From sequence record MG976803.1: DNA of 64,000 nt. One strand, given 5' to 3'. Shown here piece after piece: positions 24,080 to 61,242 of this stretch. A model generated the notes under the pieces. That model was not told the DNA's origin, made no database searches, and worked only from the letters and a program-made list of their open reading frames with translations. A program made the translations under genes and the position numbers. Position 1 is the first letter of the stretch. Each line of letters starts with the position of its first letter. Source of the stretch: Escherichia phage myPSH2311.

Positions 24080-24366
24080 TGCTTAACGTAACTAGCTTGG
24101 GCTTCATGGTCAAGAGGAACTATAGGCTCTATGTGGTCAATAGCCATATCCTTTACAGGGTGGTCAGAACCACACATGGCACACTTAAAGTGCATTGCCA
24201 GTCTACCTGTCTTTGGATTAATCTTCTGCTCTGTCTTGGCGTCTGCTAGTGCATCGAACATGGGCTTCCACTTTCTAGTCAGAGAACGAATCCCTGACTT
24301 GATAAAAGAATTGTAACGAGCTTCAGTCCACATTCCAGAGCATCTAGTCTTCTCAGCCTTCGCCAT
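24070..24366 (-). CDS. HNH endonuclease
   Basis: CAMCGSDHPVKDMAIDHIEPIVPLDH: Cys pair plus DH...N/H pattern typical of HNH nucleases. Confidence 0.5.
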   Translation of the reverse strand: MAKAEKTRCSGMWTEARYNSFIKSGIRSLTRKWKPMFDALADAKTEQKINPKTGRLAMHFKCAMCGSDHPVKDMAIDHIEPIVPLDHEAQASYVKHCQ

Positions 24367-24739
24367 AACCTACACTCATATCATCTTCTTCCCATACACG
24401 TTTATCTACTCGGTGTGATACTTTTTCACGTTTTTCTTTAATATAGCGGTTGCCTAATTCGTGGCTATATTTAATACGCTGCTCTTTACGAGATTCACGG
24501 TTGGAGGAGTTTTCATCATATGAACGATAATCAAATTTACCCATTATAATATCCTTATTACCAAGATTTATCTAACCATGTCCAGTCGAACAGGTCTTCC
24601 GGAGTCTGACCAACAAAGAGCAGCCGAGCATTCTCAAGCATCTTCTCTTCATCTTCAGTATCGAACTTCTTATAATATTCCATTCGTACTATATGATACA
24701 TGGTCCAAGCCTGCATTGAACCGTAAAGCCCTTAGGCTG

Positions 24740-25366
24740 TTAGTTACCACCCCACATAACCTCTTTACGTTCCCCACATCCGGGGATGTTATCCGTACCA
24801 TCTCCAATCAACATTTGATAGAAGAAGTTTTGCCATGAAACTAAATCAGATACGTAATGAGGAGGGACTTCTTTCTGTCTTTCTCCACAAGCCCAGCGAT
24901 AATGCCATCCGGGAGTTATCAACAAATCCTTGTCTCTAGTACAGATGATAGTATTCTTATCCCTACGTTGCCTTTCAGCTAGTGCATCATCAGCCTCTCT
25001 CCCAAAGACCTCAATGTATTCGTACTTGGCTTTAATGTAATCACCAACGTTTTGCCAGTGAAAAGGTCTTTCTCCGGGAGGTCTGTTTGCCTTGTAGTCT
25101 TGTTGCTTAGCAACATCGAAACGGAAGTTACCGCCTTCGCTGAAGTAGAATACAACCTTACTACAACCCGAGCGAGCTATAATTGTATCAATCTTGTACT
25201 GAAGTCGTTCAATCATGAAATTGTAATCAACTGGAACACGTCCTGTGTCAAGGAAGGGATGCTCCTGAGTAAGAGCACCCACTTCATACCGAAGAACGTC
25301 AGCGTCCACTATAGCAACTTCAGGGAGCTTAACTTCTTCCATAAATATCATCCTGAGCTTGAGCAA
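24740..25366 (-). CDS. 5'-3' exonuclease/flap endonuclease family protein (N-terminal nuclease domain)
   Basis: FGREADDALA motif (EADD acidic cluster typical of FEN/5'-exo family). Confidence 0.45.
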   Translation of the reverse strand: MLKLRMIFMEEVKLPEVAIVDADVLRYEVGALTQEHPFLDTGRVPVDYNFMIERLQYKIDTIIARSGCSKVVFYFSEGGNFRFDVAKQQDYKANRPPGERPFHWQNVGDYIKAKYEYIEVFGREADDALAERQRRDKNTIICTRDKDLLITPGWHYRWACGERQKEVPPHYVSDLVSWQNFFYQMLIGDGTDNIPGCGERKEVMWGGN

Positions 25367-26228: not shown

Positions 26229-27470
<1,242 letters not shown>

Positions 27471-29714: not shown

Positions 29715-29825
29715 TTAGATAGTTAATTTGTGATCTTCCTCCGCTCTGTTTCTAACAGAGACGGCTTCTTCTAGGGTTGAGAAAGTTCCTAGGTATTTAG
29801 TTTTCGTTGAAAGGCTTAAGGCTTT
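29715..29825 (-). CDS. AP2-like DNA-binding domain fragment (remnant of HNH/AP2 homing-endonuclease-like gene)
   Basis: Translation KYLGTFSTLEEAVSVRNRAEEDH resembles the Y.G.F.T.EEA AP2 signature; upstream part replaced by GC-rich sequence. Confidence 0.3.
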   Translation of the reverse strand, partial: KALSLSTKTKYLGTFSTLEEAVSVRNRAEEDHKLTI

Positions 29826-30607
29826 TGGCATAGCTGCAAAATGGGCCCGTTAATATGACCCGTTAAAGGCTTTTTTGGCATGCGTAAAAGGCTTGCTTAA
29901 ATTTCCTGCCTCATCACCCCGCCTGCATTTTGTTCCGTTGCGAATTCTCCAGAACACTTTCCCAGATGATAAATCACAAACAAAGAACTCATCCAGAAGA
30001 TCTTCTATCATATCATGCAACCATCGCAAGTTAAGTCACCTAGCAGGGACAGGGAAAGTAATCTGGATTGCTCATCGCTGTATAGTTGATCAATCTCTTC
30101 TTTAAGTTTTGCCAACTCCATAAAGTTAATGAGCTGACCATGTTCGAGGCAGTCTGTTTTTAGTACGAACAAAACTTCAGCGTTGGTTGAGTCTTCACTT
30201 GAGTATTTATCAATGTATTCCATTTTTATGCCACATCTCCTTGTTTGTTGTTAATAATATCCAGTGCTGTATAAGCTTTACCTGTTCCTAAGTATTCCAA
30301 AACTGGAGGACTCTTCTTTTCTTCAGCGACTACATAAGGTGTGATCTTCCCTTTCAGTACAGCCTGAGATGCTTTAGCACTGTCTTCAGAGGTATGAATA
30401 GTAGTAAGCCCTTTCTTTCCAATTCTATAAGTGTGAACCCAAATCATTCTTCTTCCTCATATTCCCAATTTCTTTCATAATATCCAGAGTTATAGTTTAG
30501 GGCGCACTTCTCGGCCTCTTCTATGTCGTCGGTGTTTAGGATATTCACCCACCCTCCAGCTTCATCAAAACCTTCTTCTTCCTCGTTAATCCATACACTA
30601 TATTTCT

Positions 30608-35144: not shown

Positions 35145-36128
35145 TTATGAGCTTAAAGCTCCTTTGCGTGCTCCAGCTGCTTTTCCAGCTCGATCACCAC
35201 TTTTGCCGCCGTTTGAACGGTTTGAGCTGACTGATTCAACACGTAAGTTGCTTGACGCATTAGAGCCTCCAGACTTGACAGCTCGTTTGTGTCCAACGTC
35301 TTTACCTCTGACAGCAGCTTTTCCATCGCGCTTTTCAACGATGCGACGTGCACGGTGGCGCTGAGCATCTCCGCTCTTGCTCCCAATTCCCGTTTCACCG
35401 CGCTTGATCGCAGTCCTTCTTTCTTGTGCATAATCTCTCTTTCCTACATGATCTGCCATTAGATTTCTCCTGTTGGGCAATGACGTTAAACGCCCGTTGT
35501 GGCCCAAAATTGGCGCCCAAAATTGGGGCTTAATGCGTGCGTAATTTTTGGGCCAAATTAAGGCCGTATATAATAACAGCTGAGAGGTTTCTCCCAATCG
35601 AGTCATGATTGAGAAGGCTTCATCTTTAGTGGTGTTCTGGAACTCATCAACAATAACAATAGCATCATTGAAAGAACGACCACGGAGATATTCCAGAGGT
35701 ACAAACTCAATGTTACCATTTCCGATTTGGCATTCATAGAATCCCTTACCATATCGCTGAGTAATAACATCAATGATAGGCATCAGGTAAGGTTCAAACT
35801 TCTCACGCATTCCTCCCGGAAGTAACCCAAGAGAGTTGCCCATGCCGACAGAAGGGCGACTCAGAATGATCTTCTGAATCTTACCGCTCTTCAGTGCATC
35901 AATAACTGTGGAAGTGATTACAAAGGTCTTACCACAGCCCGCAGGAGCGTCTGTGAACACAACTTGTTTAGTCTTAATAGCATTGAGTAGCTCAGACTGA
36001 AACTGGTTCTGAGGGACTACAGGCTTTGCTAAAACCACCTCTTCATACTCTCGCTTACCTTTACGAGTAACAAGTGCTTCCCGACGAAGGTCTTTCCGTG
36101 ATTCTTTCCGTGATTGACGACGACTCAT
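35145..36128 (-). CDS. phoH: PhoH-like ATPase, reading frame runs through a GC-rich insert after the DEFQN motif
   Basis: Walker A APAGCGKT; DEFQNTT...TRLG; downstream translation (LLLYTALIWPKNYARIKPQFW...) is insert-encoded. Confidence 0.5.
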   Translation of the reverse strand: MSRRQSRKESRKDLRREALVTRKGKREYEEVVLAKPVVPQNQFQSELLNAIKTKQVVFTDAPAGCGKTFVITSTVIDALKSGKIQKIILSRPSVGMGNSLGLLPGGMREKFEPYLMPIIDVITQRYGKGFYECQIGNGNIEFVPLEYLRGRSFNDAIVIVDEFQNTTKDEAFSIMTRLGETSQLLLYTALIWPKNYARIKPQFWAPILGHNGRLTSLPNRRNLMADHVGKRDYAQERRTAIKRGETGIGSKSGDAQRHRARRIVEKRDGKAAVRGKDVGHKRAVKSGGSNASSNLRVESVSSNRSNGGKSGDRAGKAAGARKGALSS

Positions 36129-37038: not shown

Positions 37039-37383
37039 TTAACTCTCCAAAGTTTTCTTCAGAGCTGCCCATGAGATTGGGTAGAGCTTAGCCATCTCTT
37101 CATCTACGGATTTAGCAAACACTCGAACTTCATATTGAGCGTGAGATGAGAGTCGCTGACGACACAACTCAAACCAGCCATACAAAGAACCAGTCCACAC
37201 CCACTCAGTGATCATCCCCTGAGGAAGAACAAATCGAGCTTGCTCTGGTGCAATAAATTCAATCAACTTGTCATATGTTGCTAGAGAAGCTTCATATGCA
37301 TCGTTAATCAACATTAATGCTTCAGCTCGTTCTCCGTCGATGAGTTGAATCCCTGAACCTGCATGGTTTGCCCAAAATGGCAT
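37039..37383 (-). CDS. thyX: ThyX, C-terminal half
   Basis: PEQARFVLPQGMITEWVWTGSLYGWFELCRQRLSSHAQYEVR matches ThyX C-terminal helical region. Confidence 0.55.
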   Translation of the reverse strand: MPFWANHAGSGIQLIDGERAEALMLINDAYEASLATYDKLIEFIAPEQARFVLPQGMITEWVWTGSLYGWFELCRQRLSSHAQYEVRVFAKSVDEEMAKLYPISWAALKKTLES

Positions 37384-37451
37384 TGGCGCTATAGCATGGG
37401 GCTTTTTAAATGGCCCCGCGGGTTAATGCTAATGGCGGATTTTGGCCACGG
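37384..37451. other. GC-rich insert splitting thyX into two ORFs in different frames
   Basis: 68 bp between the two ThyX ORFs; composition unlike flanking coding sequence. Confidence 0.55.
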
Positions 37452-37757
37452 TTATGCATGCGTAGGGAGTTCAACTGCTCCATCTTTATACCGCCGGGAC
37501 ATTTCGTTCCACGAGAATCCAACCTGATGCTTGCCCAGCTGTCTCGCAATTGCGATAGGTGCTTTGCATCGGAAACTGACTTGCGGGTGTCGGAATGGAG
37601 TACAGTGTTTTTCCCGTGCAAGGAAGTTGATAAGTTTTGTGTCTCTCTCATTTAAGTCACCTTCTCGAACAACACCGAAAGATACTCTAGCTGCATTGAC
37701 TACAGATTTGTCACTACCCATTGCTTCAATCAGTGTTGCTTGTAGTTGTTCGTTCAA
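37452..37757 (-). CDS. thyX: Flavin-dependent thymidylate synthase ThyX, N-terminal half (gene split)
   Basis: AARVSF...TPFRHPQVSFRCKAPIAIARQ...S(11)...SRRY ThyX-like pattern; ends shortly after SRRY. Confidence 0.55.
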   Translation of the reverse strand: MNEQLQATLIEAMGSDKSVVNAARVSFGVVREGDLNERDTKLINFLAREKHCTPFRHPQVSFRCKAPIAIARQLGKHQVGFSWNEMSRRYKDGAVELPTHA

Positions 37758-39322: not shown

Positions 39323-40135
39323 TATTATCCATTACCTGCTGGGTAATTACGATGCAGTTTAGGCATGGTAATGCGTTTAGGCGTCTTGGGGAGGTGCCCC
39401 CAGTTGCAAGCTGATGCTGCGGGTAAATTGGCGCCATGGGAAACGCGTTAATGCGTGCCTGATGTTATCTTTTCTCATGTGTTGCTCAAGATCCCAAACA
39501 ACATGAATAGCCCACATCTTTTTCATTAGTAATGTACCTTTCCGCTGATATAAACACGACCAGAAGAATACTCCTTGGCCTTATGGATGCTGATACTATT
39601 AACCACGTCACCAGTAAGCATAGTCTTTTTAAAATCTCGAGCTTGTTGACGAGTAGGGAGTGCAGTCATAGTCATACCACCTGATGCCCACTTAATCTTC
39701 GCTAACCAGAATTTTCTCATAGTGATTGGTCTCATTAGTAATAAACCTTACTGTTGACACAAAAAGCACCTTCACTATTCACGATAGCTTTTCCTAATGT
39801 AACCTTGTTAAGTCTAAAAGTAGACTTGTATTGGTTTTTGACCCTACGTGCGTGCTCTCGAGTATTAACAAAATCTACAGCTACTAACTCTCCAGTCGTG
39901 TTATCATGTACACGAACAATCCACTTTTTCATTTTACTAAACCCTTCATGTAGTCATAAAGATCATTAGAAGCTTTACCCCATTCAAGGTGCTTCTTATC
40001 CATATAACGCTTACAGACTTCTTTATTACCTTCATCACAAGTATCAAATCGATGACATGCCCGACCAAATACCATTGCTTTTAACTGAGCATCAGTAGTT
40101 AAATATTTAAGTTCTTGAAACTCTTCTTTATTCAT

Positions 40136-40669
40136 TTACACACCCTTAGATGCAACTACACCTTCAGAGTTATTATAACGACCCTTCACTGCATAGGAGT
40201 GTTCCCCTGCATGAGAGTGCTCAAACATGACCATCTGACCAACACGCATACCAGCACGAACTCGTAAGCTATGATGCTTGGTTACGTTATGGAATTCAAA
40301 TGTCAGCTTACTACTATTAAATCCTGCATCTGCCCAACCGGCGTGAAGGTGGTTCAAACCACAACGAGCCATAGACGAACGCAGAACAAACAGACTTGAG
40401 ATGTTATCTGGAAGATTAAACTCCTCCATAGAGTGAGCCAAGAAGAACTGACCCGGAGTGATAACCAAACCCTCTTCAGGAATCTTTACTTCCTTCCACT
40501 GAAGATTCTCTTTCGCATCAATATCAACGATGCCATCAGCCTGTTCTTCAACAAGGATAGTATCGCCAATACGAATATCCACACTAGCAGCGTTAACATA
40601 CTTATGCTCCGCATCCAGATAGCCATTGTCAATTACATCATGCAGTTCAACACTTCCTAGTAAACTCAT
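40136..40669 (-). CDS. dcd: dCTP deaminase/dUTPase-family protein
   Basis: 177 aa; beta-rich dUTPase-like sequence; RBS AAGGAG before ATG. Confidence 0.5.
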   Translation of the reverse strand: MSLLGSVELHDVIDNGYLDAEHKYVNAASVDIRIGDTILVEEQADGIVDIDAKENLQWKEVKIPEEGLVITPGQFFLAHSMEEFNLPDNISSLFVLRSSMARCGLNHLHAGWADAGFNSSKLTFEFHNVTKHHSLRVRAGMRVGQMVMFEHSHAGEHSYAVKGRYNNSEGVVASKGV

Positions 40670-40696
40670 TCTTGCTCCTTAGTTATTTGTTTCCAT

Positions 40697-40861
40697 TTAA
40701 GCGTGCATATTTTGGCTAATTTTTGGCGTAAAAGTTTTCGCCCAGTGCCTGATTGAACCGGGTCGTAATTATTGCCCGGGTAGTGTTTAAAATGGCGAGG
40801 AATTAACAGCTGAGTGTGGTGCATCAATAACACCATCATCAATTAATTTATGTAACTCTGG
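40697..40861. other. Insert upstream of dcd carrying a diverged duplicate of the dcd start region
   Basis: 45-bp near-identical repeat (40652-40696 vs 40862-40906, 2 mismatches) including RBS and ATG; copy at 40818-40908 encodes MSLLGSPELHKLIDDGVIDAPHSAVN vs MSLLGSVELHDVIDNGYLDAEHKYVN. Confidence 0.55.
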
Positions 40862-40888
40862 ACTTCCTAGTAAACTCATTCTTATTCC

Positions 40889-41266
40889 TTAGTTATTTGT
40901 TTCCATGTCAAAAGAGATTCCACGACCCGCTTCATCGGCAAACCGAACTGTACGGGTTTGAGGTTCTAATACTTCAGGGTTGTTAGCAATAAAGCGATCA
41001 GCGAGACTATCTCCCAAATCTTGTTCCATACCTTCATCAGTCCAGATAACACGAGAAGGGGCGTTGATATCACCAACAGCGAAACCCTGACCAGAGAACT
41101 GACGTGCGCTAACAGTTAAGCCGTTTGGTCGACCACGAGAGGGTCTAGCCATCCATCGCTCCATAGAATCACTTGTAATACCAAGAGCTTCTTCAAAAGA
41201 TGTTCTACGAGTAGGGCTTTCTCTTCGTGACTCTTGTGCTCGACGCATTGCAGGGGCTACAAACAC
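40889..41266 (-). CDS. Probable C-terminal part of the same nucleotidyltransferase, separated by a GC-rich insert
   Basis: Adjacent same-strand ORF after insert 41245-41375; combined length ~430 aa fits family. Confidence 0.35.
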   Translation of the reverse strand: MFVAPAMRRAQESRRESPTRRTSFEEALGITSDSMERWMARPSRGRPNGLTVSARQFSGQGFAVGDINAPSRVIWTDEGMEQDLGDSLADRFIANNPEVLEPQTRTVRFADEAGRGISFDMETNN

Positions 41267-41322
41267 CCCTTCAATTGCAAATTGGCGCCCAATTTGGCAA
41301 TGATTTGCCCCGTTTGTTAAGC

Positions 41323-42183
41323 CTATGCAAATGTGCGCTTTGGCGATTGGGCCAAATTGGCCTGAAGACTAGACATAATCTGAATCTCTTCATAAGGGAT
41401 TCCAAAGAATCGACTCATGTCTCGGTTAACACAATATAGAGCACTTGTTGTATCTTCAATAAGAGAAACCTGACCTAATCCATTGACTAGATGACTAACT
41501 GGCTGAGGTGTGGGAAGATATCGAGTTTGGGCCATGTATTGATGCGCAACTGCTGGAGAGGAAAATCTCAACACTTGTGAGTTAGGCCACTTCTTGTGAA
41601 CATACCTGATTTCACGACTAGAGACAACCACTGGACAAGGGGAAGTCATAGCCAAATATCCGTGAGAAGTCATGAATAAGTTGTCAAGAGTCATCGCACC
41701 ACGGCACATCATAGGAAAATTATCCAATACCTCTTCAATAGAAGTAGGATAATTAAACATGAATTGGATACGAACCCCATTCCACTGAAACTCAATAATA
41801 TCAGTGAATGTTAATTGAGAACCCCCAGCATAGGATTCGTTTGTAGCTTCAGCAAGAAGTGATGCATATTCAATATCTTGTGACTCTAGCCATTCCTTCA
41901 CATTACTTTCAATCTCCCGTCCAAGCTCTTGCCAACGATCAGTTGGGATGAAAGTGTTTTGAGTTCTTGGTGTTTGTCCTCTGACAATAAAGATATCAAT
42001 GTCATGTGGAGCTATGTTATTAAGGACAGCATCACGAACAGCCCCACCAGTAATGATGGGACAGATACCATCTGGAATCAAGTTGTTGTTAATCAACTGT
42101 TCAATGAAGTGACGACCAACAGTGATATCAGGTTGTTGAGCAACCTTATCTTCAATTTGGTTAATCGGGATAACAATCATTTT
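41323..42183 (-). CDS. Pol-beta superfamily nucleotidyltransferase (CCA-adding/poly(A)-polymerase-like), N-terminal part
   Basis: GICPIITGGAVRDAVLNNIAPHDIDIF matches GG.VRD...D.D NTase signature; C-terminal 16 residues are insert-encoded. Confidence 0.5.
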   Translation of the reverse strand, partial: KMIVIPINQIEDKVAQQPDITVGRHFIEQLINNNLIPDGICPIITGGAVRDAVLNNIAPHDIDIFIVRGQTPRTQNTFIPTDRWQELGREIESNVKEWLESQDIEYASLLAEATNESYAGGSQLTFTDIIEFQWNGVRIQFMFNYPTSIEEVLDNFPMMCRGAMTLDNLFMTSHGYLAMTSPCPVVVSSREIRYVHKKWPNSQVLRFSSPAVAHQYMAQTRYLPTPQPVSHLVNGLGQVSLIEDTTSALYCVNRDMSRFFGIPYEEIQIMSSLQANLAQSPKRTFA

Positions 42184-42739
42184 ACATTTTCCAATATAAT
42201 GAAGGTGGGTCGTAAGGGTCAAATCCCGTGAGTTCACACAAGAAAAGATAAACCTTAACAGTTAAGTTAACGTCCTGTTCACAATAAGTAAACATATCTT
42301 CAGTGAAAGCATCCCATGCTTCCTCTTGCTCACCATAATCGCCCTTAAGTTCTCCTAAGAACTCACCCCACTGCTTCAAACCATGACCCCTTGGGCCACG
42401 TCTAGGGTCGCCTTTCGGATACTCAGGACTGTCACCAATACGGTCAGGTTTAAGATATCGACTAAGACATAAAGTGTCGAAGACGTTAAAACGATAGTTA
42501 ATCAGATTGGGATACATCTTCTTCAGAGCACAAAGGTCGAAGTCAATAATATTGTGACCCACCAGTACATCTGCTTCTGTAAGTTTACGAATCCCATCTT
42601 CAATTTGGTGAGGCCGATAGCCCCACCTTTCACCAGTTTCAACATCGAAGATATAAATACACCATACTTTAGTTATGTCATCGTACAGTGCATTACTCTC
42701 GATATCGAATGCAAACACTTTCTTCTTTTTCTTTACCAC
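42182..42739 (-). CDS. DnaQ-like 3'-5' exonuclease (stand-alone)
   Basis: Exo motifs [10 protein letters not shown] (DxE), [16 protein letters not shown] (Yx3D). Confidence 0.65.
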
Positions 42740-44073
42740 GGTGAAGCTCCATCTGCTTGGTTGACGAGAGAAGCTGCATCCTCTCCGTTAGTTAAAACGA
42801 ATGGATTATCTTCATCAACTTCAAAGTCTTCCCTTTCTACAAGTCTCCCGGTTTCACTGATATACTTAGTATAGCAGACACCTGTCTGACCGTAGTTACG
42901 TTCTTTCAGTAATCGAATGACTGAGAGGTTCTTAGCTAAGCCATCAGCTTGCTTGTCACGCTCAAAGCCAATGATACACTGACACCAACGCATAAGAGAA
43001 CGAGAGCCAGTGAACTGCACTTCACGTACCTGTCCACCTTCTTCATGAGGAGCACCACCTGCCGGAGCATTAAGGTGAGATAGCACGAAAGCGGTAAAGT
43101 CTAATTCTTTGCACATACCAGCAAGCTCGGAAGCAATCTTACTGATTTCAGTGTTAATCTCTGAAGGTGTTAAATGGGACACCAGAGCGGTAATGTTATC
43201 AAGGATGATGAACTTACACTGGTTTTCAACTACCCAGAAACGGATACACTGTTTAATGTCTTCCCATTCATTCTGTCCGAAGTTGTCATACAAGAAGAAT
43301 TTGTCTGCATAACGAAGTGCTTCATTACGCAAATCCTCCTCATCATATTCAACATCAGGTCGGTGGAAAGGAATTGATGCCGACTTACCAGCAATGTTCT
43401 TAACAGACATGCCTACCTTCTCTTCCAAGAAGAAGCCACCTCCATTAAAACCATGTTCTAAGCACAGATGAGCAACCAGCTCATGAGCAATGAGTGTTTT
43501 ACCACTCCCTACTCCACCACCAATTGCTACCACCTCTCCCCATCGAATACCGAAGGTCATCTCATTCAGAGTCTTCCACGGATATGGGATACCCCACTCC
43601 GCTTTCTTCAGAGCATCATCAAGGCAATCAAAGATTGTTACAGCACCAGCAGGAGATTCCCGCTTTGCTGAGTACTTGAGAATGTTGAATAACTCTTGAC
43701 CACGACCAGACAGAAGCATGTCATTCGCATCCTTAATCTCTTTCTCCACACCGTTGTATGGGAAAGTTCCTTTAGGAATACGAGCAAACTTAACATGAGG
43801 GAATAAAGAACGACCTTTTGTTAAAGCTATCTCACCTGCATCATCGTTGTCCATGCAGAGCACAACCTCCTCAAAACCATTTACGAAGTCTCGATTACGA
43901 GACAACACAGAAGAGATTGAACCTGCACCGAACGGTAAAGAAACACATGCTGGTTTGATGTTTGTTGCATTTGTAAAAGCTGTAAGGACATGGAAACCTG
44001 ACATACAGGATAGCGGGTCTTCAAAAATGAACAGCTTCTTGTTGTACACATCTCCACGTTGAGCTTGTGCCAT
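42733..44073 (-). CDS. DNA primase/helicase (Toprim domain plus DnaB-like helicase)
   Basis: Toprim MDNDDAGE; Walker [10 protein letters not shown]; Walker B-like FIILDNIT. Confidence 0.75.
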
Positions 44074-44240
44074 ACCAAAATTGCGTGACGTTGGCTAATT
44101 GCTGACGTGGAATGGCCCTGGCAATTGGGATGCCCCGTGTTAGCTGCGATTTGGCGCGTTATTGGCCCCGTGTTTGCAAGTAATGCGCGGGCTTTATGCC
44201 GTTAATGCTGGGTTTATGCGTGCATATTGCTGTGCCAATG
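44074..44240. other. GC-rich insert between primase zinc-ribbon and Toprim coding regions
   Basis: Zinc-ribbon ORF runs into this segment and stops; Toprim ORF begins just after it; composition unlike flanks. Confidence 0.55.
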
Positions 44241-44412
44241 CGTAATGGGTAGTGCCCTTTTCGAACACTTCGTAATTCCCACAACGGTTACAACTCCCCC
44301 ACTCCTCACCAGTCTCTTCGTTACGGAAGAGAATCATGTGGTTGTGGGTTTTATCACGACCATGAGAGATACATTCCTTACAACCTGTGTCTCCCAAAAT
44401 GATCTTTGACAT
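44194..44412 (-). CDS. Primase zinc-binding domain (N-terminal fragment of primase)
   Basis: CKEC...CNRC Cys4 zinc-ribbon; last ~17 residues are insert-encoded. Confidence 0.5.
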   Translation of the reverse strand: MSKIILGDTGCKECISHGRDKTHNHMILFRNEETGEEWGSCNRCGNYEVFEKGTTHYALAQQYARINPALTA

Positions 44413-44590: not shown

Positions 44591-45214
44591 TTAAATACTT
44601 GGCTTCAAGTCTCCGAAGAGCCATGTGGCAATTTTATCTTGTTCTTCGTCGATATGATAAATCCAAGCGATAACAGTTTCACCTGAGTCCATCTTAACAG
44701 CAATCTGAGTACGCTGATAGAAGCTGTCTTCAGGGCTACGTTTGTTGTAACCTTCCAGACGGTCATACGGACCTTCCAGACCTGCTTTGTCAGTAGCAAA
44801 CACTTCTACACGAACAGGCTTGTTGTTATTGCTGTGTGCGAGAGAGATGCTCGGGAAGTAGGAACCACCGTAACGGAACAGATCAAAGTTGTCTAATGGG
44901 CCGTTTTATGCGGTTTAAAGGCCTTGACCAGTGCATTTGCCCGTTAAATGGCGTGGGGATTTCCCAGTGCGGGTGGCCAGTAAACGTGTTTTGTCTTTGT
45001 CAGTAGCAAACACTTCTACACGAACAGGCTTGTTGTTATTGCTGTGTGCGAGAGAGATGCTCGGGAAGTAGGAACCACCGTAACGGAACAGATCAAAGTT
45101 GTCTTCAGTCCAACCTTCACCAATTGACTTAGCACCAGCTCGGTCATTAACTAAATAGTTAGCTTGACCACGACGAAGAGAACCATAAGTTGCTACGTAA
45201 ATTACTTCTGACAT
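44591..45214 (-). CDS. Gamma-glutamyl cyclotransferase (AIG2/GGCT)-like protein, interrupted by 100-bp insert with 110-bp flanking direct repeats
   Basis: N-terminus MSEVIYVATYGSLRRGQAN resembles YGSL...G GGCT signature; ORFs 44915-45214 and 44591-44803 join if 44895-45104 is removed. Confidence 0.45.
44895..44994. other. GC-rich insert flanked by 110-bp perfect direct repeats (44785-44894 and 44995-45104)
   Basis: Exact repeat verified by reading both copies. Confidence 0.6.
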
Positions 45215-45425
45215 TATCTATACCTTTCCAGTCTTTCATGATGTTTTCAATGTAAGCACACTGCTGATCAGTGGCTCCTGTTACAAACACTTCTAACCCC
45301 AACTGCTCACAGAAGGGATTAAGAATCAATATTCTGGTTTGCCCATACGAGTGATGCTCTCGGTAGATAACACACCCAGCATCCCATACAGAATCAATGG
45401 CTTTACTCAATCTTTCATGTTTCAT
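45159..45425 (-). CDS. Hypothetical protein
   Basis: 88-aa ORF overlapping GGCT-like start. Confidence 0.3.
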   Translation of the reverse strand: MKHERLSKAIDSVWDAGCVIYREHHSYGQTRILILNPFCEQLGLEVFVTGATDQQCAYIENIMKDWKGIDNVRSNLRSNLWFSSSWSS

Positions 45426-45478
45426 AAAACCTCCAGCTTATCCGAACTAGCCTCCTCTTTCGAAGAGGCTAAAGCAGA

Positions 45479-46880
45479 TTACTCTGTAATAAAGATTTTG
45501 ATTACACCACAGATTGCTGCACTCTCAAATACTGCAACAGCTTCACTCCCCTGAAAGAAGGCCACTTTGCCGTCAGAGAAGTTAAACATGTCAGCATCTA
45601 GGTCCATAGCTCGCATATCACCAGCGTCGTTAGTATCTTTAAACAGAACTTTATACTTATTCACAGATAGGTCACTCCTTTGTCTTGTTGTGCTTCAGAG
45701 ATGATACGTTCTACACATTCCATAGAATACTTATCACCACGTTTCAGGAAAGTCACAATTGCAGAGAATTGATTACCAATCATTCGCTGATTAGTAATAC
45801 CCCACTCCTCACACAACTTACGCAACTCTTTACGAGAGCCTACAATCAGAGGCTCTTTTTGTTCCATCATTCCATTTTGTACTAGATCTTCCAATGAAAA
45901 CATATCCATATATCCTTAGTAGTTTACAACAGTGCCATCGTTCAGGGTAAGGCTATTAATCTGCAACACACGACCAAGCTGACGATCACTAATTGGTGCG
46001 TTCCATCCAGAGCGGTAGAAGTTACGACCACAGAAGAACAAGATCACATTACTTGCTACAGTCGAACCGTTTTCAGGATGCTTGATGTTAGCGATATAAT
46101 AACCACGACGCAGATTACGACGGGTTACAGGGTTGATCTCTAACCCTTGCTCTTCAACTTGCATTGTTTCAGGAACAGGTTCCGAAGATTCTTCAGCAAC
46201 TGGCTCGGAGCTTTCCACTGACAGTGCGTAATCCTCATCACCTGCTGGTGAAAATGTTTCTTCCACTTCTTCAACAGGAAGTTCGTATGCAACACGATAG
46301 TCAGGCTCAACACCAGAGAAGCTCTTAACAAACTCAACAATATTGTGAGTATAGGTTTCCAGAGTTGTTCCAGTCAGTCCCGGAGCTGTGTTAACTTCCA
46401 GAACCCAAGCGTTAGTATTTTTACTAATCAGGTCAACAGCACCAAAGTTCAAACCCAGAGCAGATACAGCTTTGTGAGCTTGAATCAAAACCTGATCAGG
46501 AGGCGCATCTTGGAAGTTTGAGGAATAAACCCAACCAGTGTGATGATTTCGAACGTCTTCACGATAGGAAGGATCTTCACGGTAACCATTACGACGAATC
46601 TTCTTCTGAACGTAAGTGATAACACCTTCGAATACATGAACACGCCATTCACGATTGGTGAACGATAAGGGAAAGGTCCTTGGCCATAGCGTGGCGTATG
46701 CATGCATGCATGCATAAATTGCGTGTTTTGGGCGCGGTGAACGACTGTTAAAGTGTTAGCTTGACCACGACGAAGAGAACCATAAGTTGCTACGTAAATT
46801 ACTTCTGACATTATCTATACCTTTGTTGGTTTGTTTAGTTTATCCGAACTAGCCTCCTCTTTCGAAGAGGCTAAAGCAGA
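45479..46880 (-). repeat. Tandem repeat unit 3: truncated ATP-grasp copy (45916-46707), 82-aa ORF (45661-45909), 61-aa ORF (45479-45664), plus GC-rich junction and GGCT-start fragment
   Basis: Near-identical to units at 46881-48246 and 48247-49904; truncated copy begins exactly at codons REWRVHV. Confidence 0.7.
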
Positions 46881-48246
46881 TTACTCTGTAATAAAGATTT
46901 TGATTACACCACAGATTGCTGCACTTTCAAATACTGCAACAGCTTCACTTCCCTGAAAGAAGGCCACTTTGCCATCAGAGAAGTTAAACATGTCAGCATC
47001 TAGGTCCATAGCTCGCATATCACCAGCATCATTAGTATCTTTAAACAGAACTTTATACTTATTCACAGATAGGTCACTCCTTTGTCTTGTTGTGCTTCAG
47101 TGATGATACGTTCTACACATTCCATAGAATACTTATCACCACGTTTCAGGAAAGTTACAATTGCAGAGAATTGATTACCAATCATTCGCTGATTAGTAAT
47201 ACCCCACTCCTCACACAACTTACGCAACTCTTTACGAGAGCCTACAATCAGAGGCTCTTTTTGTTCCATCATTCCATTTTGTACTAGATCTTCCAATGAA
47301 AACATATCCATATATCCTTAGTAGTTTACAACAGTGCCATCATTCAGGGTAAGACTGTTAATCTGCAACACACGACCAAGCTGGCGATCACCAATCGGTG
47401 CATTCCACCCAGAGCGGTAGAAGTTACGACCACAGAAGAACAAGATCACATTACTTGCTACAGTTGAACCATTCTCAGGGTGCTTGATATTAGCGATGTA
47501 ATAACCACGACGTAAAGTACGACGGGTTACAGGGTTGATCTCTAACCCTTGTTCTTCCACTTGCATTGTTTCAGGAACAGGCTCCGAAGACTCTTCAACA
47601 ACTGGTTCAGCTGTCAATGCAAAGTTCTCGTCATCTGCTGATTCAGCAAACTCTTCCACTTCTTCAACAGGCAGTTCGTAAGCAACGCGGTAGTCAGGAT
47701 CAACACCAGAGAAACTCTTAACAAACTCAACGATGTTGTGAGTGTAAGTTTCCAGAGTTGTTCCAGTCAGGCCCGGAGCTGTATTAACTTCCAGAACCCA
47801 AGCGTTAGTACCTTTGCTAATCAGGTCAACAGCACCGAAGTTCAAACCCAGAGCAGATACAGCTTTGTGGGCTTGAATCAGAACCTGATCAGGCGGCGCA
47901 TCTTGGAAGTTTGAGGAATAAACCCAACCAGTATGATGGTTTCGAACGTCTTCACGATAGGAAGGATCTTCACGATAACCATTACGGCGAATCTTTTTCT
48001 GAACATAGGTGATAACACCTTCAAACACATGAACACGCCATTCACGAGGTGTAAGCTGCGAATGCGGTTAAATTGCAATGCGTGCCCAAGTGTTTTTGCT
48101 AAGGTGGGTAACATTTACGCGGTCCATTAGTCGTCGTGCAGTTGCGTATAAGTTGCTACGTAAATTACTTCTGACATTATCTATACCTTTGTTGGTTTGT
48201 TTAGTTTATCCGAACTAGCCTCATCTTTCGAAGAGGCTAAAGCAGA
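46881..48246 (-). repeat. Tandem repeat unit 2: truncated ATP-grasp copy (47318-48028), 82-aa ORF (47063-47311), 61-aa ORF (46881-47066), plus GC-rich junction
   Basis: Protein copies differ at a few residues from unit 1; same breakpoint as unit 3. Confidence 0.7.
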
Positions 48247-48432
48247 TTACTCTGTAATAAAGATTTTGATTACACCGCAGATTGCTGCACTTTCAAACAC
48301 TGCAACAGCTTCACTTCCTTGAAAGAAGGCCACTTTGCCATCAGAGAAGTTAAACATGTCAGCATCGAGGTCCATTGCTCGCATCTCACCAGCTGCATTG
48401 GTATCTTTAAACAGAACTTTATACTTATTCAC
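48247..48432 (-). CDS. Small protein (61 aa), first of three copies
   Basis: 61 aa; copies at 46881-47066 and 45479-45664 are identical in protein sequence, the unit-1 copy differs at two residues; followed by conserved hairpin. Confidence 0.35.
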   Translation of the reverse strand: MNKYKVLFKDTNAAGEMRAMDLDADMFNFSDGKVAFFQGSEAVAVFESAAICGVIKIFITE

Positions 48433-48677
48433 AGATATGTTACTCCCTTGTCTTGTTGTGCTTCAGTGATGATACGCTCTACACATTCCATAGAGTACTT
48501 ATCACCACGTTTTAGGAAAGTTACAATTGCAGAGAATTGATTACCAATCATTCGCTGATTAGTAATACCCAACTCCTCACACAATTTACGCAACTCTTTA
48601 CGAGAGCCTACAATAAGAGGCTCTTTTTGTTCCATCATTCCATTTTGTACTAGATCTTCCAATGAAAACATATCCAT
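48429..48677 (-). CDS. Small protein (82 aa), first of three copies
   Basis: Conserved in all three repeat units. Confidence 0.35.
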   Translation of the reverse strand: MDMFSLEDLVQNGMMEQKEPLIVGSRKELRKLCEELGITNQRMIGNQFSAIVTFLKRGDKYSMECVERIITEAQQDKGVTYL

Positions 48678-48683
48678 ATATCC

Positions 48684-49904
48684 TTAGTAGTTTACAACAG
48701 TGCCATCATTCAGGGTAAGGTTATTAATCTGCAACACACGACCAAGCTGACGATCACTAATTGGTGCGTTCCATCCAGAGCGGTAGAAGTTACGACCACA
48801 GAAGAACAAGATCACATTACTTGCTACAGTTGAACCATTTTCAGGATGCTTGATGTTAGCGATATAATAACCACGACGCAGATTACGACGGGTTACAGGG
48901 TTGATCTCTAACCCTTGCTCTTCAACCTGCATTATTTCAGGGACAGGCTCCGAAGACTCTTCAACAACTGGCTCGGAGCTTTCCGCTGATAGTGCGTAAT
49001 CCTCATCACCTGCTGGTGAAAATGTTTCTTCCACTTCTTCCACGGGAAGTTCGTATGCAACACGGTAGTCAGGCTCAACACCAGAGAAGCTCTTAACAAA
49101 CTCAACGATGTTGTGAGTGTAGGTTTCCAGAGTTGTGCCAGTCAGGCCCGGAGCTGTATTAACTTCCAGAACCCAAGCGTTAGTACCTTTGCTAATCAGG
49201 TCAACAGCACCGAAGTTCAAACCCAGAGCAGATACAGCTTTGTGAGCTTGAATCAGAACTTGATCAGGAGGCGCTTCAGTGAAGGAGTTAGAATAAACCC
49301 AACCAGTATGATGGTTACGAATATCTTCACGATAGCTTTCCAGTTCACGATAACCATTACGACGAATCTTCTTCTGAACGTAAGTGATAACACCTTCGAA
49401 CACATGAACACGCCATTCACGACGTGGGCCTTGGATGCCTTTGGTGTACAGAGGAGCATCCGCAACACCTTCTCGCGGAAGACGAACAGTGATCCCCTCA
49501 CCAGAGTGACCAGTCAAGGTTGCACGTTCATAAACAATTTCATTCCGGTTCCAGTTCTGAGCTACTTCACGATCTACGGTGTATTCAACAGTTTTGACTT
49601 CAGCTAAACGCAGTGCGTTAAATGCTGCAACTTTGTTAGCGGCTCGGTTCAAGGCAACCACAGAGTTCAATACAGTTGCACCGCCAAAGAAAGAATCATT
49701 ATATCGACGGTTTCCATAGTTGACAACAATATCACCAACTCGAGAACGATAACGAGAACCCTCTGATACCAGAGACATTACGTTAGCATTTAAGCGAAGT
49801 TCCTGAATCTTAGTTAACGGGTTACATGATGCGTTTAAGCCTGTTACCGTGGCGTTAAATCGGGTTAAGTCAGTCGTAGTGCGTAGTGACTTGTGTGATG
49901 GCAT
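48684..49904 (-). CDS. ATP-grasp family ligase (full-length copy)
   Basis: 406 aa; C-terminal half contains GAVDLISKGTNAWVLEVNTAPGLTG (ATP-grasp EVN..PG signature). Confidence 0.5.
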   Translation of the reverse strand: MPSHKSLRTTTDLTRFNATVTGLNASCNPLTKIQELRLNANVMSLVSEGSRYRSRVGDIVVNYGNRRYNDSFFGGATVLNSVVALNRAANKVAAFNALRLAEVKTVEYTVDREVAQNWNRNEIVYERATLTGHSGEGITVRLPREGVADAPLYTKGIQGPRREWRVHVFEGVITYVQKKIRRNGYRELESYREDIRNHHTGWVYSNSFTEAPPDQVLIQAHKAVSALGLNFGAVDLISKGTNAWVLEVNTAPGLTGTTLETYTHNIVEFVKSFSGVEPDYRVAYELPVEEVEETFSPAGDEDYALSAESSEPVVEESSEPVPEIMQVEEQGLEINPVTRRNLRRGYYIANIKHPENGSTVASNVILFFCGRNFYRSGWNAPISDRQLGRVLQINNLTLNDGTVVNY

Positions 49905-50353
49905 AGGTAACCTACGCCTATATGTACGTGACCACAGTCAGTACGAAGTCCCTTGTTCTGAGAAGTGGGGGACGGATTTTTCTGACCAGTGAAAGCGTTG
50001 AAGTCAGGAGTACATCCAAAGATGAACGCTGATTCATTAAAGGTCTTCATTTCTTCTTCGGTGAAGATGTGAGAGCTAACACCCGGAGCTGTTTCCATGT
50101 CCAGTTTGTTCAGGACATTATTGGTAAGATCGATACCACGTTGCATGTTATCGTTAAACGCTTCAAAACCGCTCTGTGGGTCGATATCAAACTCAGCCAG
50201 TACGTTGTCCTCTTGAAGACGAACATCTTTAGCCAGAGTGATCTTATCGTCCTTAGAACAGCCTAATAGACCAGCTACAGAGGTGATGATACCATTACTG
50301 GTACGAACGAACATTTCAGGGTCAGAGCCGATAAGGAATTTGCGCTTAGTCAT
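49865..50353 (-). CDS. Hypothetical protein (possible ligase-associated)
   Basis: 162-aa ORF overlapping neighbours; no confident motif. Confidence 0.3.
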   Translation of the reverse strand: MTKRKFLIGSDPEMFVRTSNGIITSVAGLLGCSKDDKITLAKDVRLQEDNVLAEFDIDPQSGFEAFNDNMQRGIDLTNNVLNKLDMETAPGVSSHIFTEEEMKTFNESAFIFGCTPDFNAFTGQKNPSPTSQNKGLRTDCGHVHIGVGYLCHHTSHYALRLT

Positions 50354-51327: not shown

Positions 51328-52527
51328 TTATTTTCCTAAAAATAATCCGCTCATAACACCATCCCACTCAGAGGATGGAATCACTGAATACTCCGAACTT
51401 TGGTCCAGAGTCCCACTACTAAATCGCTGAATAATGTTGTAGATGTTGAACAGGTCTTTAGCCTCGGCACGAATGCCGTAGATTAACCTGTTAGCTGTTC
51501 TCTCATTTTTAGACACGCGACGGGTAAAGTTAATCAGAAGGTTGTCACATTTCAGGATTTCCGATTCACTCTCTACTAAGTCGGGGTGCATCACCGGCAA
51601 GAACATCGAGTTATTAACTCGTAATTCTGCTGTTTCATCATTCTCATAATGAATCCACTTAAAATCTTCATCACGGAAATGACCGCATCCATCCCTATAC
51701 GACTGTTGACGCCAAGGCACTTGAAATGCTTCAGCATATTTATCAGCCATACCAACTGTAAACAGTGACGCTGGGAAGATACAAGCATCCCAATCATTAC
51801 CGACCAGAGTTGCTTTCGTTTCGCCCAAGAGGTTGGTGTAGGTGCTAACCATTCGTGAGTAAACGTAAGCCTGAAGGATTGTCCAGCCTTCAACCAACCA
51901 TTTATGAAGGAAGGTTTCCACTTGGCTCTCTTCATCTTCAAAATAGAAGGTTCGATCTAACATCAAATAGAACAGACAACGATCAGCAGGAACATTCTCA
52001 GTTGCTACACCCATAAAACCTTTTTCGTGCCAGCGTAAACAGGAGGGACGATCTTTGTCCACAAATGCTTCCATAGCTTCCAGTACAGCACGAGGTGTGG
52101 TTCGGTGTTCAGGGTTTTTGTCGTTCCAACGTTCGATGTTATTTTTAGGAGGTGTGTCTTCATCTTCATATGAACACCAACTTAAAGCTTCAGCTACGTG
52201 CTTTTCATCACGCCAGCGTCTGAAACCTAACATCTTCATGTGAGTTCCGGAGTTCCAGATATGCTTGATTTTACACATATCCATTTCTCGGCTTAGCCGG
52301 AACTCTTCTCCATCAGCACTACGAACGTTAGCTTCTTCATGCCACACTCGAACGTGCATATTCCACCCATGAGTTGCCTCATAAGTGTTAGGTTCAAAAT
52401 ATTCATCATACTCTTCATCGTCTTCATCAACGCCACCGTTATAGTTGCGAAGCTGAAGGAACCCATAACAAGGGGGGTTGACCGTTAAAACATTACCTTC
52501 AGTATCTTCTAATGTTACTGGAAACAT
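51328..52527 (-). CDS. Hypothetical protein
   Basis: 399-aa ORF, acidic N-terminal region. Confidence 0.3.
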   Translation of the reverse strand: MFPVTLEDTEGNVLTVNPPCYGFLQLRNYNGGVDEDDEEYDEYFEPNTYEATHGWNMHVRVWHEEANVRSADGEEFRLSREMDMCKIKHIWNSGTHMKMLGFRRWRDEKHVAEALSWCSYEDEDTPPKNNIERWNDKNPEHRTTPRAVLEAMEAFVDKDRPSCLRWHEKGFMGVATENVPADRCLFYLMLDRTFYFEDEESQVETFLHKWLVEGWTILQAYVYSRMVSTYTNLLGETKATLVGNDWDACIFPASLFTVGMADKYAEAFQVPWRQQSYRDGCGHFRDEDFKWIHYENDETAELRVNNSMFLPVMHPDLVESESEILKCDNLLINFTRRVSKNERTANRLIYGIRAEAKDLFNIYNIIQRFSSGTLDQSSEYSVIPSSEWDGVMSGLFLGK

Positions 52528-54235: not shown

Positions 54236-55018
54236 TTACATCGGAGTTAAGATGATCTCTGCTTTGGCAAACTTCTCGCCAACTTCAAGAGTGTCAGAAA
54301 CAGGACGAGGTTCGATGTGCAGTTCGTCCAATTCATCAAGACCTTTAACAGATAGTACACCTGTGGATAGATTCACTACAGGAACCCAGCCACTGGCTAT
54401 ACGGATGTTACCAGAAGCATTTTCAACCCTCATATAATACTGAGGAGAGGCACTTCCGTGCTGAACCATGAAGGGGTTTCCGGGAATGATTGTTTCCAAT
54501 CGAACCGTATTATCCTTTTTCTTTGGGATGATTTTCATTATGTATTATCCACCAAAAGTTCTGCCGACACAGGAATAACTCGACAATAAATAGAAGGTGC
54601 TGTTACATTGCCATCAGACAGACGAAGAGTGATTGATCTGTCAGAGTTGATAGTAACGTTTGGACTTGCAGACACAGACCCTTTGACATACAGGGTTGCA
54701 TTGTCAGGAAACTTAAACACAGCTCCGCTGGGAAGTGAGTTGAGGTCAACTGTAGTCACTTCTTCTTTCTTGTGAGTAATCTTCATATTATTTACCCTGA
54801 ATAATAAGTTTAGATTCGAACAGATCAACAGTATTGGACAAAGGGACAGGAAAGAAAATATCTTTAGGGTTCCGAACACACATTGCAGAATGCTCCCCTG
54901 TTTTTATCCAGAATTTAGGGACTACATCGTCACCAGTAAAACGAAAAACATCTCCATTCTCCAAGTCAGAGAAAGTCTTGGAGGGTGTTTTGCTTTTTGG
55001 TACTAGCTCAAAATTCAT
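54236..55018 (-). CDS. Three tandem small paralogous ORFs (54788-55018, 54538-54879, 54236-54538)
   Basis: Shared hydrophobic-x-G-(D/A/S)-V-F motif about 20-30 residues from N-terminus. Confidence 0.35.
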
Positions 55019-55338: not shown

Positions 55339-56600
55339 ACATCCTCCAATTAATTGTTAAAACTATCAGGGGAGAACACTAGCTCTGGGCCACGCTGTAG
55401 ATATCGGCCTACCTTCCACAGCTAATCAGCTAATATACTCCCCTAATAGTTTATGAATAGGGGGAGGGGACGAATCCTCCCTTATCCTATTAGTTAATAT
55501 TGCATGTAAGATCTAACAATCGGTTGCCTTTGTAGGAATAAGCGTAAAGCCAATCCAGCACTAAACTCCCGCCCCCTTAGTGGGCTGGGTTATTAAAGGG
55601 TAACGCCCTTATGGGCTAGTTACATGAATGTTAGTTTGATAGGAGATCTGAAGTCCTATCTCAAAGGACTCTCGTAAGAATCCTTCACGATATTACTTAT
55701 TCATCTCTCGTCGGCTATCTCTCCAAGCCAACCAAGTGTAGGTTTTCAGTTCTTCAAAGTCTTCTGGAGAGAATAGATACTCTTTGAAGGTGTTCCCAAA
55801 CCACTCTAAAAATTCTTCAGTCATGAGTCCTCATACAGTGATCTGAGTCGTTTGAACGAGCTGAGTTTCAGGAGCTTCTGAGTCATGCCAGGATGTCGTA
55901 GTCGTGATGTTTTTAGTGAGGACCAATTCAGAACTTACGAGCACCACAGCAAGGAGAGTTGACATAAGAGTAACCAGCTTGTGTATTCTTGATTGTTTGC
56001 TTAGACATTTGAGCTTCCTCTTGTTAGTTTAGGTAAACCACCCCAATCACTGCTGCACTCATTCATGTGGAATGCAGATGGGAAAAGTAATTAAAGGTGA
56101 TTTACCTAAAACAACAAAGGCCACCCGAAGCCAGCTAAGCTACTGACATTGCATGAATCCAAAAGCCTTCCAGTTTCAGAGCACCATTAGCTACTGCATC
56201 CATACGTTCAGGGCGGTTCATACGTTTGGTTGATACTTTCATACCTATCTCTCTTTGTTAGTGGAGGCATTATTGCCAGTTGATATAAGGGATAGCCCTA
56301 GTCAGTAGACTAATCCTGACCGCGTACTCATTGCCGACCTTCTCTGCCTAAGAGTTCAGGTTCTAGAGCTATCTCTTATTCCAACTGGTGAAGACTCCCT
56401 ACCCCTAGGAAGTCTCCTGAATCCCAAACTAATACGTACCCCTACATATCAGAAAGTCTTTCGAAAATTAACAGGTTTTAGTCTAGCACCGGATGTTCGA
56501 GCAAGCTCTCCCTAGCGGTGTGGCATATGCCTGAATTAATAAGTTAATGAGGAACACCCTCACATAGCCCTCTGATAAACACAAGGGCTATAAGTCGATG

Positions 56601-59268: not shown

Positions 59269-59385
59269 AATCTTATTCCTTTCAGTGATAAGTTATATCG
59301 GGCAAGCCCATCAAGGCGATAGGCTTGAACAAATAACTTAATCAAGTAAACTAAACGATTTCCAACTCTTTTTTACGGTGCCCGA

Positions 59386-59688
59386 TTATCTACGTTGCGA
59401 TCTTTTGCTGATGGCAGTCTTTAAGTCGCTAGTCGGTAGTCGGGTATCTTTACTGTCTTTAGTCGTAGTCGTAAATGCGTACTTTGTCAAAAGTCGTGCA
59501 TGTGATTGAGCAAATGACGCTTTAACAGCCATTTTCCTAACTTCTTCTTTACGCTGGTTAGTGTGTACAGTATCCCAATGATTGTTATCACGTTGGCGCT
59601 GTAATATCTTACTACATTTGCGATGGTTTCCCGTGCTGCGATGTTTCTCGCAAATAGGACACTTGCCAAAATTATTACTGAATATCAT
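59386..59688 (-). CDS. Cys/His-containing small protein (possible zinc-binding)
   Basis: CPIC...H...C spacing in first 30 residues. Confidence 0.3.
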   Translation of the reverse strand: MIFSNNFGKCPICEKHRSTGNHRKCSKILQRQRDNNHWDTVHTNQRKEEVRKMAVKASFAQSHARLLTKYAFTTTTKDSKDTRLPTSDLKTAISKRSQRR

Positions 59689-60014: not shown

Positions 60015-61242
60015 TTATGCCGCTTGACGTGCCGCCATAATCTCAGCCGCTTTGCGCAGTACTTCTTCCTCTTCTGCTTTCGCCGCTTGTTCACTACGGA
60101 TTGCAACCGTTGAAGAGATACGACCGCGCAGGTTATCTAATTTTTCCTGCATTTTGGCAATGGTGGATTCCATTTCATCAGCGTATGAATCGAGTGATTC
60201 TAATTCCTTGCTTGATGCGTTCATCAGATAATCATCCGAGATCGCTACCGTTGAGGCCGTGACTTTCTTGATGAGTGAATCAAAGGACTTTTTAACCTTC
60301 CCAACTTCTTCACTCAGGGCGATAGTGTTATCGCTAGTTGCGCCGTTGCGCTCATCAGCCAGTAATTTGGCTTCAATACGGATTGCATTCAAACGTTCGA
60401 CTAAAGCGTAAATATCTTGGTTAAAATCTTCCTTGTTTTTCGCCGGTATTTGCAGGTGTGCCACTACGTTGTCATTGCAACCCTTGTAAAAGTTAGGATT
60501 ATCGACTTCAATTTCACGACCTAGTGCAAAATTTTCGAAAGCATTTGACCAGCGAGCGCGGTTTAGTACCATTTTGGATTTAATTTGCGCTACTTTCGCA
60601 TCTTCTTTAGCTTTCGCCTCACCTTCCAGAATAAACCACTATTTACGAACATATGCGTCCCGTGTACCCGTCGTTTACTTGACTGGCTTTGTCATGCGTA
60701 TTTTGTCGTACGTGACTGTTTTCGTACGTTGCGTGCATGCGTTTTGTCAAAATGTTTTTCGCCGGTATTTGCAGGTGTGCCACTACGTTGTCATTGCAAC
60801 CCTTGTAAAAGTTAGGATTATCGACTTCAATTTCACGACCTAGTGCAAAATTTTCGAAAGCATTTGACCAGCGAGCGCGGTTTTGTTCCATTTTGGTTTT
60901 AATTTGCGCTTCTTTCGCATCTTCTTTAGCTTTCGCCTCACCTTCCAGATTAATCCACTTTTTACGACCATTTGCCGCATCGGTGTTAAACTTGATAGGA
61001 GTTAAGAAAGTAATTGCGGTAGCGATAACATCCATATCACGGAAACGTTCAGTTAACAGGAAGTCAACCGCCGCCTGCAATACATCTAACTTCTTACCGT
61101 TGCTACGAAAGTGCTGCAAATGCCCTAACAGGAAGTTAGAAACATCTTGTTTGATCGCCGCGTTATTACTGCGAATGTTGTTAGCCAGAGCATTAAAACC
61201 GGATTCGTTAACCAGAGTAAAGATTTTAGCCATAATATTCAC
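60015..61242 (-). CDS. Hypothetical protein, interrupted by 102-bp insert and 217-bp duplicated segment
   Basis: ORFs 60643-61242 and 60015-60572 share a duplicated RARWSNAFENFALGREIEVDNPNFYKGCNDNVVAHLQIPAKN segment. Confidence 0.4.
60651..60752. other. Insert flanked by 217-bp direct repeats (60434-60650 and 60753-60969) that differ at 8 positions
   Basis: Base-by-base comparison of the two copies. Confidence 0.6.

Follow-up and report, generated by a model that had tools for sequence, protein, structure and literature searches.

Direct repeats around a 100-nt insert in the GGACT-like gene of a Kuravirus sequence very probably mark a non-biological join

The window analyzed here, a 64,000-nt stretch of DNA, belongs to a Kuravirus (phiEco32/SU10/NJ01 group), with Escherichia phage ES17 (MN508615.2) as the nearest record, and contains a gene for a GGACT-like protein that is interrupted by an insert lying between two copies of a 110-nt segment of the gene itself. 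This repeat-insert-repeat structure is almost certainly an artefact of the joining or scaffolding type, or a synthetic one, and not an excisable element; the feature is not real biology. The original prediction, which took it for an insert that recombination could remove in the phage population, did not survive comparison with related genomes: the locus is one of many non-biological joins across the window, and the assembly artefact that the prediction had named as the alternative speaking against itself is, with very little doubt, what the structure represents. The direct observations are the geometry of the joins, their recurrence, the unnatural composition of the sequences placed between the joined pieces (hereafter, fillers), the absence of these sequences from all databases searched, the disruption of essential genes, and a gene that is intact and single-copy in every natural relative.

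A repeat search of the window found the 110-nt direct repeats at positions 44785-44894 (copy A) and 44995-45104 (copy B) as two copies, 100% identical and with a start-to-start spacing of 210 nt, as had been described from the sequence originally; a perfect match of this length within 64 kb cannot have arisen by chance. The insert enclosed by the repeats, as defined by the repeat coordinates and by reading the sequence, measures exactly 100 nt (44895-44994; GC 0.51, G+T 0.63) and is a non-phage filler. Copy A, on the minus strand, encodes approximately residues 37-73 of the GGCT-like protein; it corresponds to ES17 51895-52004 and closes the left-hand piece. The right-hand piece opens with copy B, also on the minus strand, which corresponds to ES17 51895-52004 once again. 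The GGACT-like gene runs along the minus strand from an ATG at 45214, and the filler contains stops in frame with it, so that the truncated 5' open reading frame (ORF) (44915-45214, minus strand) terminates at an in-frame stop within the insert after 99 aa, of which 73 are native and 26 are read from the filler. The separate 3' fragment (44594-44905, minus strand) is a stop-to-stop frame that covers ES17 residues 38-123 and then continues into an aberrant tail. A look-up of the 99-aa chimera of GGCT and filler in public assemblies returned no record.

The same gene bears a second lesion at 44623-44634, where 12 nt of filler stand for 59 nt of ES17 (51686-51744) and take away the last 16 codons together with the native stop. 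Deletion of one repeat and the insert in silico yields a protein that is 100% identical to the ES17 GGCT over residues 1-123, with a total length of 137 aa, in which, owing to this lesion, 14 unrelated residues stand in for the last 16 native ones. The expectation that excision would restore an intact ORF was thus correct for collinearity with nine natural loci and for the first 123 residues, but not for the native C terminus.

The identity of the gene was assessed by profile matching, with a score above the gathering threshold taken as membership. The reconstructed protein matches Pfam family PF06094 (E=9.1e-15; 55.7 bits against a cut-off of 22.8), and each of the two gene fragments also scores above the cut-off (26.2 and 25.4 bits). 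On this match, which agrees with the family assigned in the original prediction, the interrupted gene is a predicted GGACT/AIG2-like gamma-glutamyl cyclotransferase. In the relatives, the gene is annotated as 'gamma-glutamyl cyclotransferase' or 'YtfP/UPF0131', and it carries an accessory, 'moron' annotation. The GGACT/AIG2-like (YtfP/UPF0131) genes ES17_77, SU10_078, and Bas91_0071 are the same underlying gene as that in the window; however, natural Kuravirus genomes carry it as a single intact ORF of 139 aa, and only the copy in the window is split and altered at the C terminus. It is an ordinary, single-copy accessory gene present in all Kuraviruses.

The natural state of the locus was examined at two levels. 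When a 1.2-kb query spanning the locus was searched, 33 records covered at least 80% of it, and each of the 30 best-matching ones aligned as three pieces with 91% coverage. Neither the duplication nor the insert is present in any of these 30 best relatives of the 33, and their records span ~164 nt less than the query does, a difference that corresponds to the 210 nt of duplication plus insert minus the net loss of 47 nt at the second lesion. Nine natural loci were then compared directly (ES17, Bas91, SGF2, SU10, DE5, TH38, MK373770, one ENA metagenome scaffold, and one Logan contig). All nine have an intact 139-aa gene with a single copy of the 110-nt segment and no insert, and the 'excised' form of the window sequence aligns to each of them free of gaps. 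Four natural contigs that encode the exact dCTP-deaminase allele of the window, which is not that of ES17, likewise contain one 139-aa PF06094 gene each, adjoining a primase/helicase gene of 596 aa.

Comparison of the whole window with ES17 by local megablast revealed that the interrupted gene is part of a general pattern. The window consists of 32 blocks collinear with ES17, most of them 99-100% identical, which are divided by nonaligning blocks, resulting in ~30 breakpoints relative to ES17. Filler blocks of ~100 nt occupy at least 18 of the breakpoints (~18-20 in all). Six nonhomologous blocks are exactly 100 nt long (23211-23310, 37367-37466, 39360-39459, 40697-40796, 44895-44994, and 55837-55936), and seven have lengths of 94-109 nt (2656-2754, 5775-5883, 35473-35574, 46655-46748, 48052-48147, 49815-49911, and 60657-60752); other fillers measure 68, 83, 135, 140, or 169 nt, in addition to a class of 7-36 nt. 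On passing from one side of a ~100-nt block to the other, the position in ES17 shifts either backward, by 81, 110, 110, 223, 1279, or 1308 nt, which gives rise to flanking 'direct repeats' or 'tandem copies', or forward, by 38, 452, 1040, 1786, or 4717 nt, which gives rise to apparent 'deletions'.

The backward jump of 81 nt produces a second perfect structure of the same kind at 23130-23391 (plus strand), with 81-nt repeats at 23130-23210 and 23311-23391 enclosing the filler 23211-23310, inside the gene for a TolA-like virion protein (ES17_25 homolog). The largest forward jump is found at 49815-49911, where 97 nt of filler replace 4,717 nt of ES17 comprising the rest of the ATP-grasp gene, the aminotransferase gene, ES17_84/85, and part of the COOH.NH2 ligase gene. 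Similarly, 1,040 nt of ES17 are missing at the filler 35473-35574, 452 nt at 39360-39459, and 1,786 nt at 55837-55936. In the comparison with ES17, fillers of the same class as that at 49815-49911 were also identified at 37367-37466, 2656-2754, 5775-5883, 22264-22403, 41280-41362, 44080-44248, and 59368-59502. The strings of the 7-36-nt class (584-595, 19436-19449, 21511-21535, 24072-24099, 24708-24743, 26403-26428, 44623-44634, 54315-54332, and 56136-56142) are filler-like as well and stand for 51-209 nt of ES17 each.

At several joins, the two pieces come from different strain alleles. The third join that combines a 110-nt overlap with a 100-nt filler lies at 40587-40906 (minus strand), where a TH38-like dCTP-deaminase allele extends to 40696 and is followed by the filler 40697-40796 and then by the ES17-like allele. 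The piece preceding the filler ends at ES17 47836, and the ES17-like sequence (100% identical) restarts at ES17 47727, so that the overlap is 110 nt in ES17 coordinates (47727-47836), with the copies only ~79% identical. The TH38-like dCTP deaminase shares 59% amino acid identity with that of ES17 and occurs in exact form in 103 blocks of public contigs. Because the two 'copies' are different alleles, duplication in situ cannot produce this structure, whereas overlapping pieces from different strains can. Another allelic overlap, at 60434-60975 (minus strand), consists of 223-nt repeats, 96% identical, around the 96-nt filler 60657-60752; it splits the ES17_119 homolog, and identity to ES17 is 95% for the left piece and 99.7% for the right.

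The region next to the GGACT-like gene contains three tandem 'copies' of a hyp78-hyp79-ATP-grasp segment (45435-49814, minus strand), namely, copy 1 at 45435-46654, copy 2 at 46749-48051, and copy 3 at 48148-49814, joined by the fillers 46655-46748 (94 nt) and 48052-48147 (96 nt). Copy 3 is ES17-like (99.8%), copy 2 is closest to SU10/DE5 (96.8%), and copy 1 is ~94-95% identical to all relatives. The later two copies each open with a remnant of the 5' end of the GGCT gene (for instance, the MSEVIYVATYGSLRRGQAN ORF from 46811), and a look-up of the 82-aa ORF of copy 1 returned no record in public assemblies. Differences of the tandem copies from ES17 fall at third codon positions in 30 of 46 and 44 of 64 cases, and 36 of the 46 and 58 of the 64 are shared with other natural Kuraviruses. 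Judged by these substitution patterns, the tandem 'copies' are three natural strain alleles. None of the 92 matching records contains the triplication at 45435-49814; each maps to one region of ~1.9 kb. Simulated random mutation was also considered as the origin of the divergence between the tandem copies and was ruled out by the third-position bias and by the sharing of the differences with natural Kuraviruses.

The fillers share a k-mer style that is unnatural, and they are non-biological. Their GC content is ~0.5 compared with 0.425 for the window, and the chi-square statistic of their 4-mers amounts to 1388, compared with 245+-28 for independent, identically distributed sequences matched in base composition and 418+-58 for phage samples of equal size. 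The most over-represented 4-mer is ATGC, with 34 occurrences against 6.9 expected, followed by AATG, TGGC, GCAT, and TGCA. The fillers have 349 same-strand 7-mers in common, vs. 134 when compared in reverse complement and 100+-13 in shuffled sequences. On the plus strand of the window, the fillers are rich in G+T in both genome arms and regardless of gene orientation, the gene strand switch being located at ~23.5 kb; their strand bias follows the direction of the written sequence and not that of transcription or replication. Shared style does not extend to shared sequence: alignment of the two exactly 100-nt inserts 44895-44994 and 23211-23310 showed no real similarity in either orientation. 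A log-odds scan with 4-mers trained on the fillers recovered the fillers and one further filler-like segment of ~100 nt (29808-29909).

Searches for the source of the fillers were negative throughout. Neither the insert nor 17 concatenated fillers (1788 nt) had a match in 50,697 phage records, and the fillers had no match in 5,426 complete Escherichia coli genomes with their plasmids and no exact-pattern match in IMG/VR, JGI metagenomes, or GTDB genomes; the sole return of the filler searches was a 31-nt chance match with E=3. The insert 44895-44994 contains no ORF and no Rfam match at E<=1, and the one Rfam match obtained, to Zeta-pan, does not fall within the insert and scores well short of the threshold (22 bits against a gathering score of 56.7). 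Fold z-scores of +0.39, -0.30, +0.97, and -0.03, the first two of which pertain to the insert itself, are no different from those of shuffled sequences. ARAGORN identified no tRNA genes in the window. In at least one relative, phiEc_1, a tRNA-Arg is annotated in the corresponding region of the right arm.

The joins break genes that a phage would need. The portal gene changes frame after a net loss of 64 nt, the homolog of the major capsid gene ES17_11 and the tail fibre gene ES17_14 (1021 aa) are broken by joins, and the TolA-like virion protein is in four pieces. The terS, exonuclease, PhoH, thyX, and nucleotidyltransferase genes are broken as well, as are the GGCT and ATP-grasp genes and the ES17_119 homolog. 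In the primase/helicase gene, the 169-nt filler 44080-44248 takes the place of 280 nt, and the largest remaining fragment encodes 446 aa (ORF 42733-44073), compared with 596 aa in all relatives. With breaks in the genes for the portal, the major capsid protein, the tail fibre, and the primase/helicase, the genome is not viable in its written form. No real phage could bear this full set of lesions, which therefore belong to the text and not to a replicating genome.

The structure in the GGACT-like gene is very probably accounted for by two Kuravirus stretches that overlapped by 110 nt and whose overlap was left unmerged. The unmerged stretches would have been bridged with a placeholder of a fixed length of ~100 nt, which here would consist of pseudo-random A, C, G, and T and not of N, and the same joining operation would have been performed ~18-20 times along the window. 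Under this scheme, overlapping neighbors would yield 'direct repeats', perfect if the pieces came from one strain and imperfect if they came from different strains; sequence absent between pieces would yield 'deletions'; and several strain variants of one region set in series would yield 'tandem copies'. Such geometry is that of reference-guided scaffolding of a fragmented, mixed-strain Kuravirus assembly, and the pipeline may have been a scaffolder followed by replacement of N runs or 'polishing', unless the window was built outright by synthetic or generative means. The 'ATGC-rich' style that the fillers share, bound as it is to one orientation, suggests a generator of some kind as their source; it may have acted when N runs were replaced, during polishing or consensus calling, or in a synthetic or generative assembly of the whole sequence.

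By the AGP convention, a 100-bp gap denotes a gap of unknown size, and this is the default in RagTag, which also sets inferred gaps of <1 bp, negative values being overlaps, to 100 bp (PMC9753292). The window resembles the products of such scaffolding in two respects. First, it has spacers of fixed length, ~100 nt (six of exactly 100 nt and seven of 94-109 nt), between reference-collinear pieces. Second, such pieces recur with overlap or loss between them: overlap results in duplicated flanks, including the allelic overlaps at 40.7 and 60.6 kb, loss results in deletions, and variant contigs stand in tandem. In contrast, a gap in AGP or RagTag output is written as N, whereas no N run occupies the joins of the window and the spacers consist of A, C, G, and T, several of them being 94-109 or 7-36 nt long. 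These differences count against an artefact of this type: a true scaffold gap would be an N run, so that an extra step is needed, and fillers of 7-36, 68, 83, 135, 140, and 169 nt replace 51-280 nt of ES17, which simple scaffolding with gaps of fixed length does not account for. Because the spacers are not N, the locus works like a scaffold join but is not a standard AGP gap. The k-mer overlap of a de Bruijn graph was separately considered as the source of the repeats and was rejected, given that the overlaps of 81, 110, and 223 nt fit no single k.

Among the biological explanations, a very recent, real duplication-insertion, in which template switching or illegitimate recombination duplicated the 110 nt and captured 100 nt of filler, with reversion possible by homologous recombination, would agree with several features of the locus. 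The repeats are perfect and direct, and a real duplication of very recent origin would likewise show two identical 110-nt copies, a point against the artefact; the unit of repeat plus insert adds 210 nt to the GGACT-like gene, a length divisible by 3; excision gives back collinearity with all relatives; and, in an accessory 'moron' gene, a null allele could be tolerated. However, this geometry is also seen at essential genes, among them portal, capsid, tail fibre, and primase, which cannot tolerate it, and independent biological events would not be expected to yield a fixed length of ~100 nt together with unrelated sequences that have an artificial composition in common. Moreover, at 40.7 kb, the geometry of 110 nt plus 100 nt joins different alleles, the GGACT-like gene carries a second, independent lesion, and the allele was found in no relative or metagenomic contig in the sets searched. 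Natural tandem duplications in phages resemble the structure in having perfect direct repeats and in being formally revertible by recombination, but they are arranged head to tail with no spacer, whereas the copies in the window are parted by a 100-nt foreign spacer and the pattern also strikes essential genes and joins different alleles. Taken together, we consider a real duplication-insertion very improbable.

Deliberate engineering appears just as improbable. A recombineering barcode or scar, or a single-crossover integration that duplicates a homology arm, would be compatible with the round length of the insert, 100 nt, and with flanks of 81-110 nt that resemble homology arms. Nevertheless, ~20 sites that disrupt essential genes and delete up to 4.7 kb would leave no propagatable phage, the fillers had no vector- or plasmid-like match in the set of E. 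coli genomes including plasmids, and tandem arrays of mixed strain alleles are not an outcome of engineering.

A real but unstable allele within a badly reconstructed sequence, that is, a 210-nt duplication with filler that switches the accessory gene off and reverts through the 110-nt repeats, is in our view even less probable than the preceding explanations. Least probable of all is a small nonautonomous mobile element (MITE-like, a homing element, or a miniature intron) that generates long flanking duplications, which would fit an insert of discrete length between direct repeats of host sequence and the presence of HNH homing endonucleases elsewhere in Kuraviruses, but not an insert for which the repeat search reported no terminal inverted repeats and which has no ORF, Rfam match, or stable fold; nor the other ~100-nt inserts, which are unrelated to it and to each other and of which no copy was found in any database searched; nor flanks of 81, 110, 223, and ~1300 nt that are often replaced by a deletion (38-4717 nt). 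Transposons and MITEs share with the window the arrangement of an insert between direct repeats of host sequence, but their target-site duplications are of a fixed 2-15 nt, whereas the repeats in the window are 81-223 nt or more and variable; the original remark that these repeats are not a transposon target-site duplication was correct. As for self-splicing introns and homing elements, the insert matches no Rfam intron family and has no such structure, and these elements do not duplicate exon sequence, whereas here 110 nt of coding sequence are duplicated.

With a non-biological join as the preferred reading, the finding is a matter of quality control: the window is not a faithful phage genome. 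Further findings from this sequence that depend on 'inserts' of ~100 nt, on direct repeats with complete or nearly complete identity, on genes that are split or present in tandem, or on deletions should be read as the same artefact. This applies to the 81-nt repeats at 23.1 kb, to the ATP-grasp region with its three copies, to the primase and portal genes, both of which are split, and to the loss of 4.7 kb.

Two further blocks of the window depart from ES17. The block at 45228-45434, next to the start of the GGACT-like gene, is a 207-nt segment that is 100% identical to Bas91 (Bas91_0072) and is not found in ES17; the Bas91_0072 gene is also present in SU10, DE5, and SGF2. The block may represent natural mosaicism or a contig of another strain, and it makes clear that, in its natural parts, the window is a mosaic or mixture of Kuravirus strains and not ES17 alone. 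The other block, of 294 nt at 29724-30017, is likewise not present in ES17 and combines natural-looking AT-rich flanks with a filler-like core of ~100 nt at 29808-29909.
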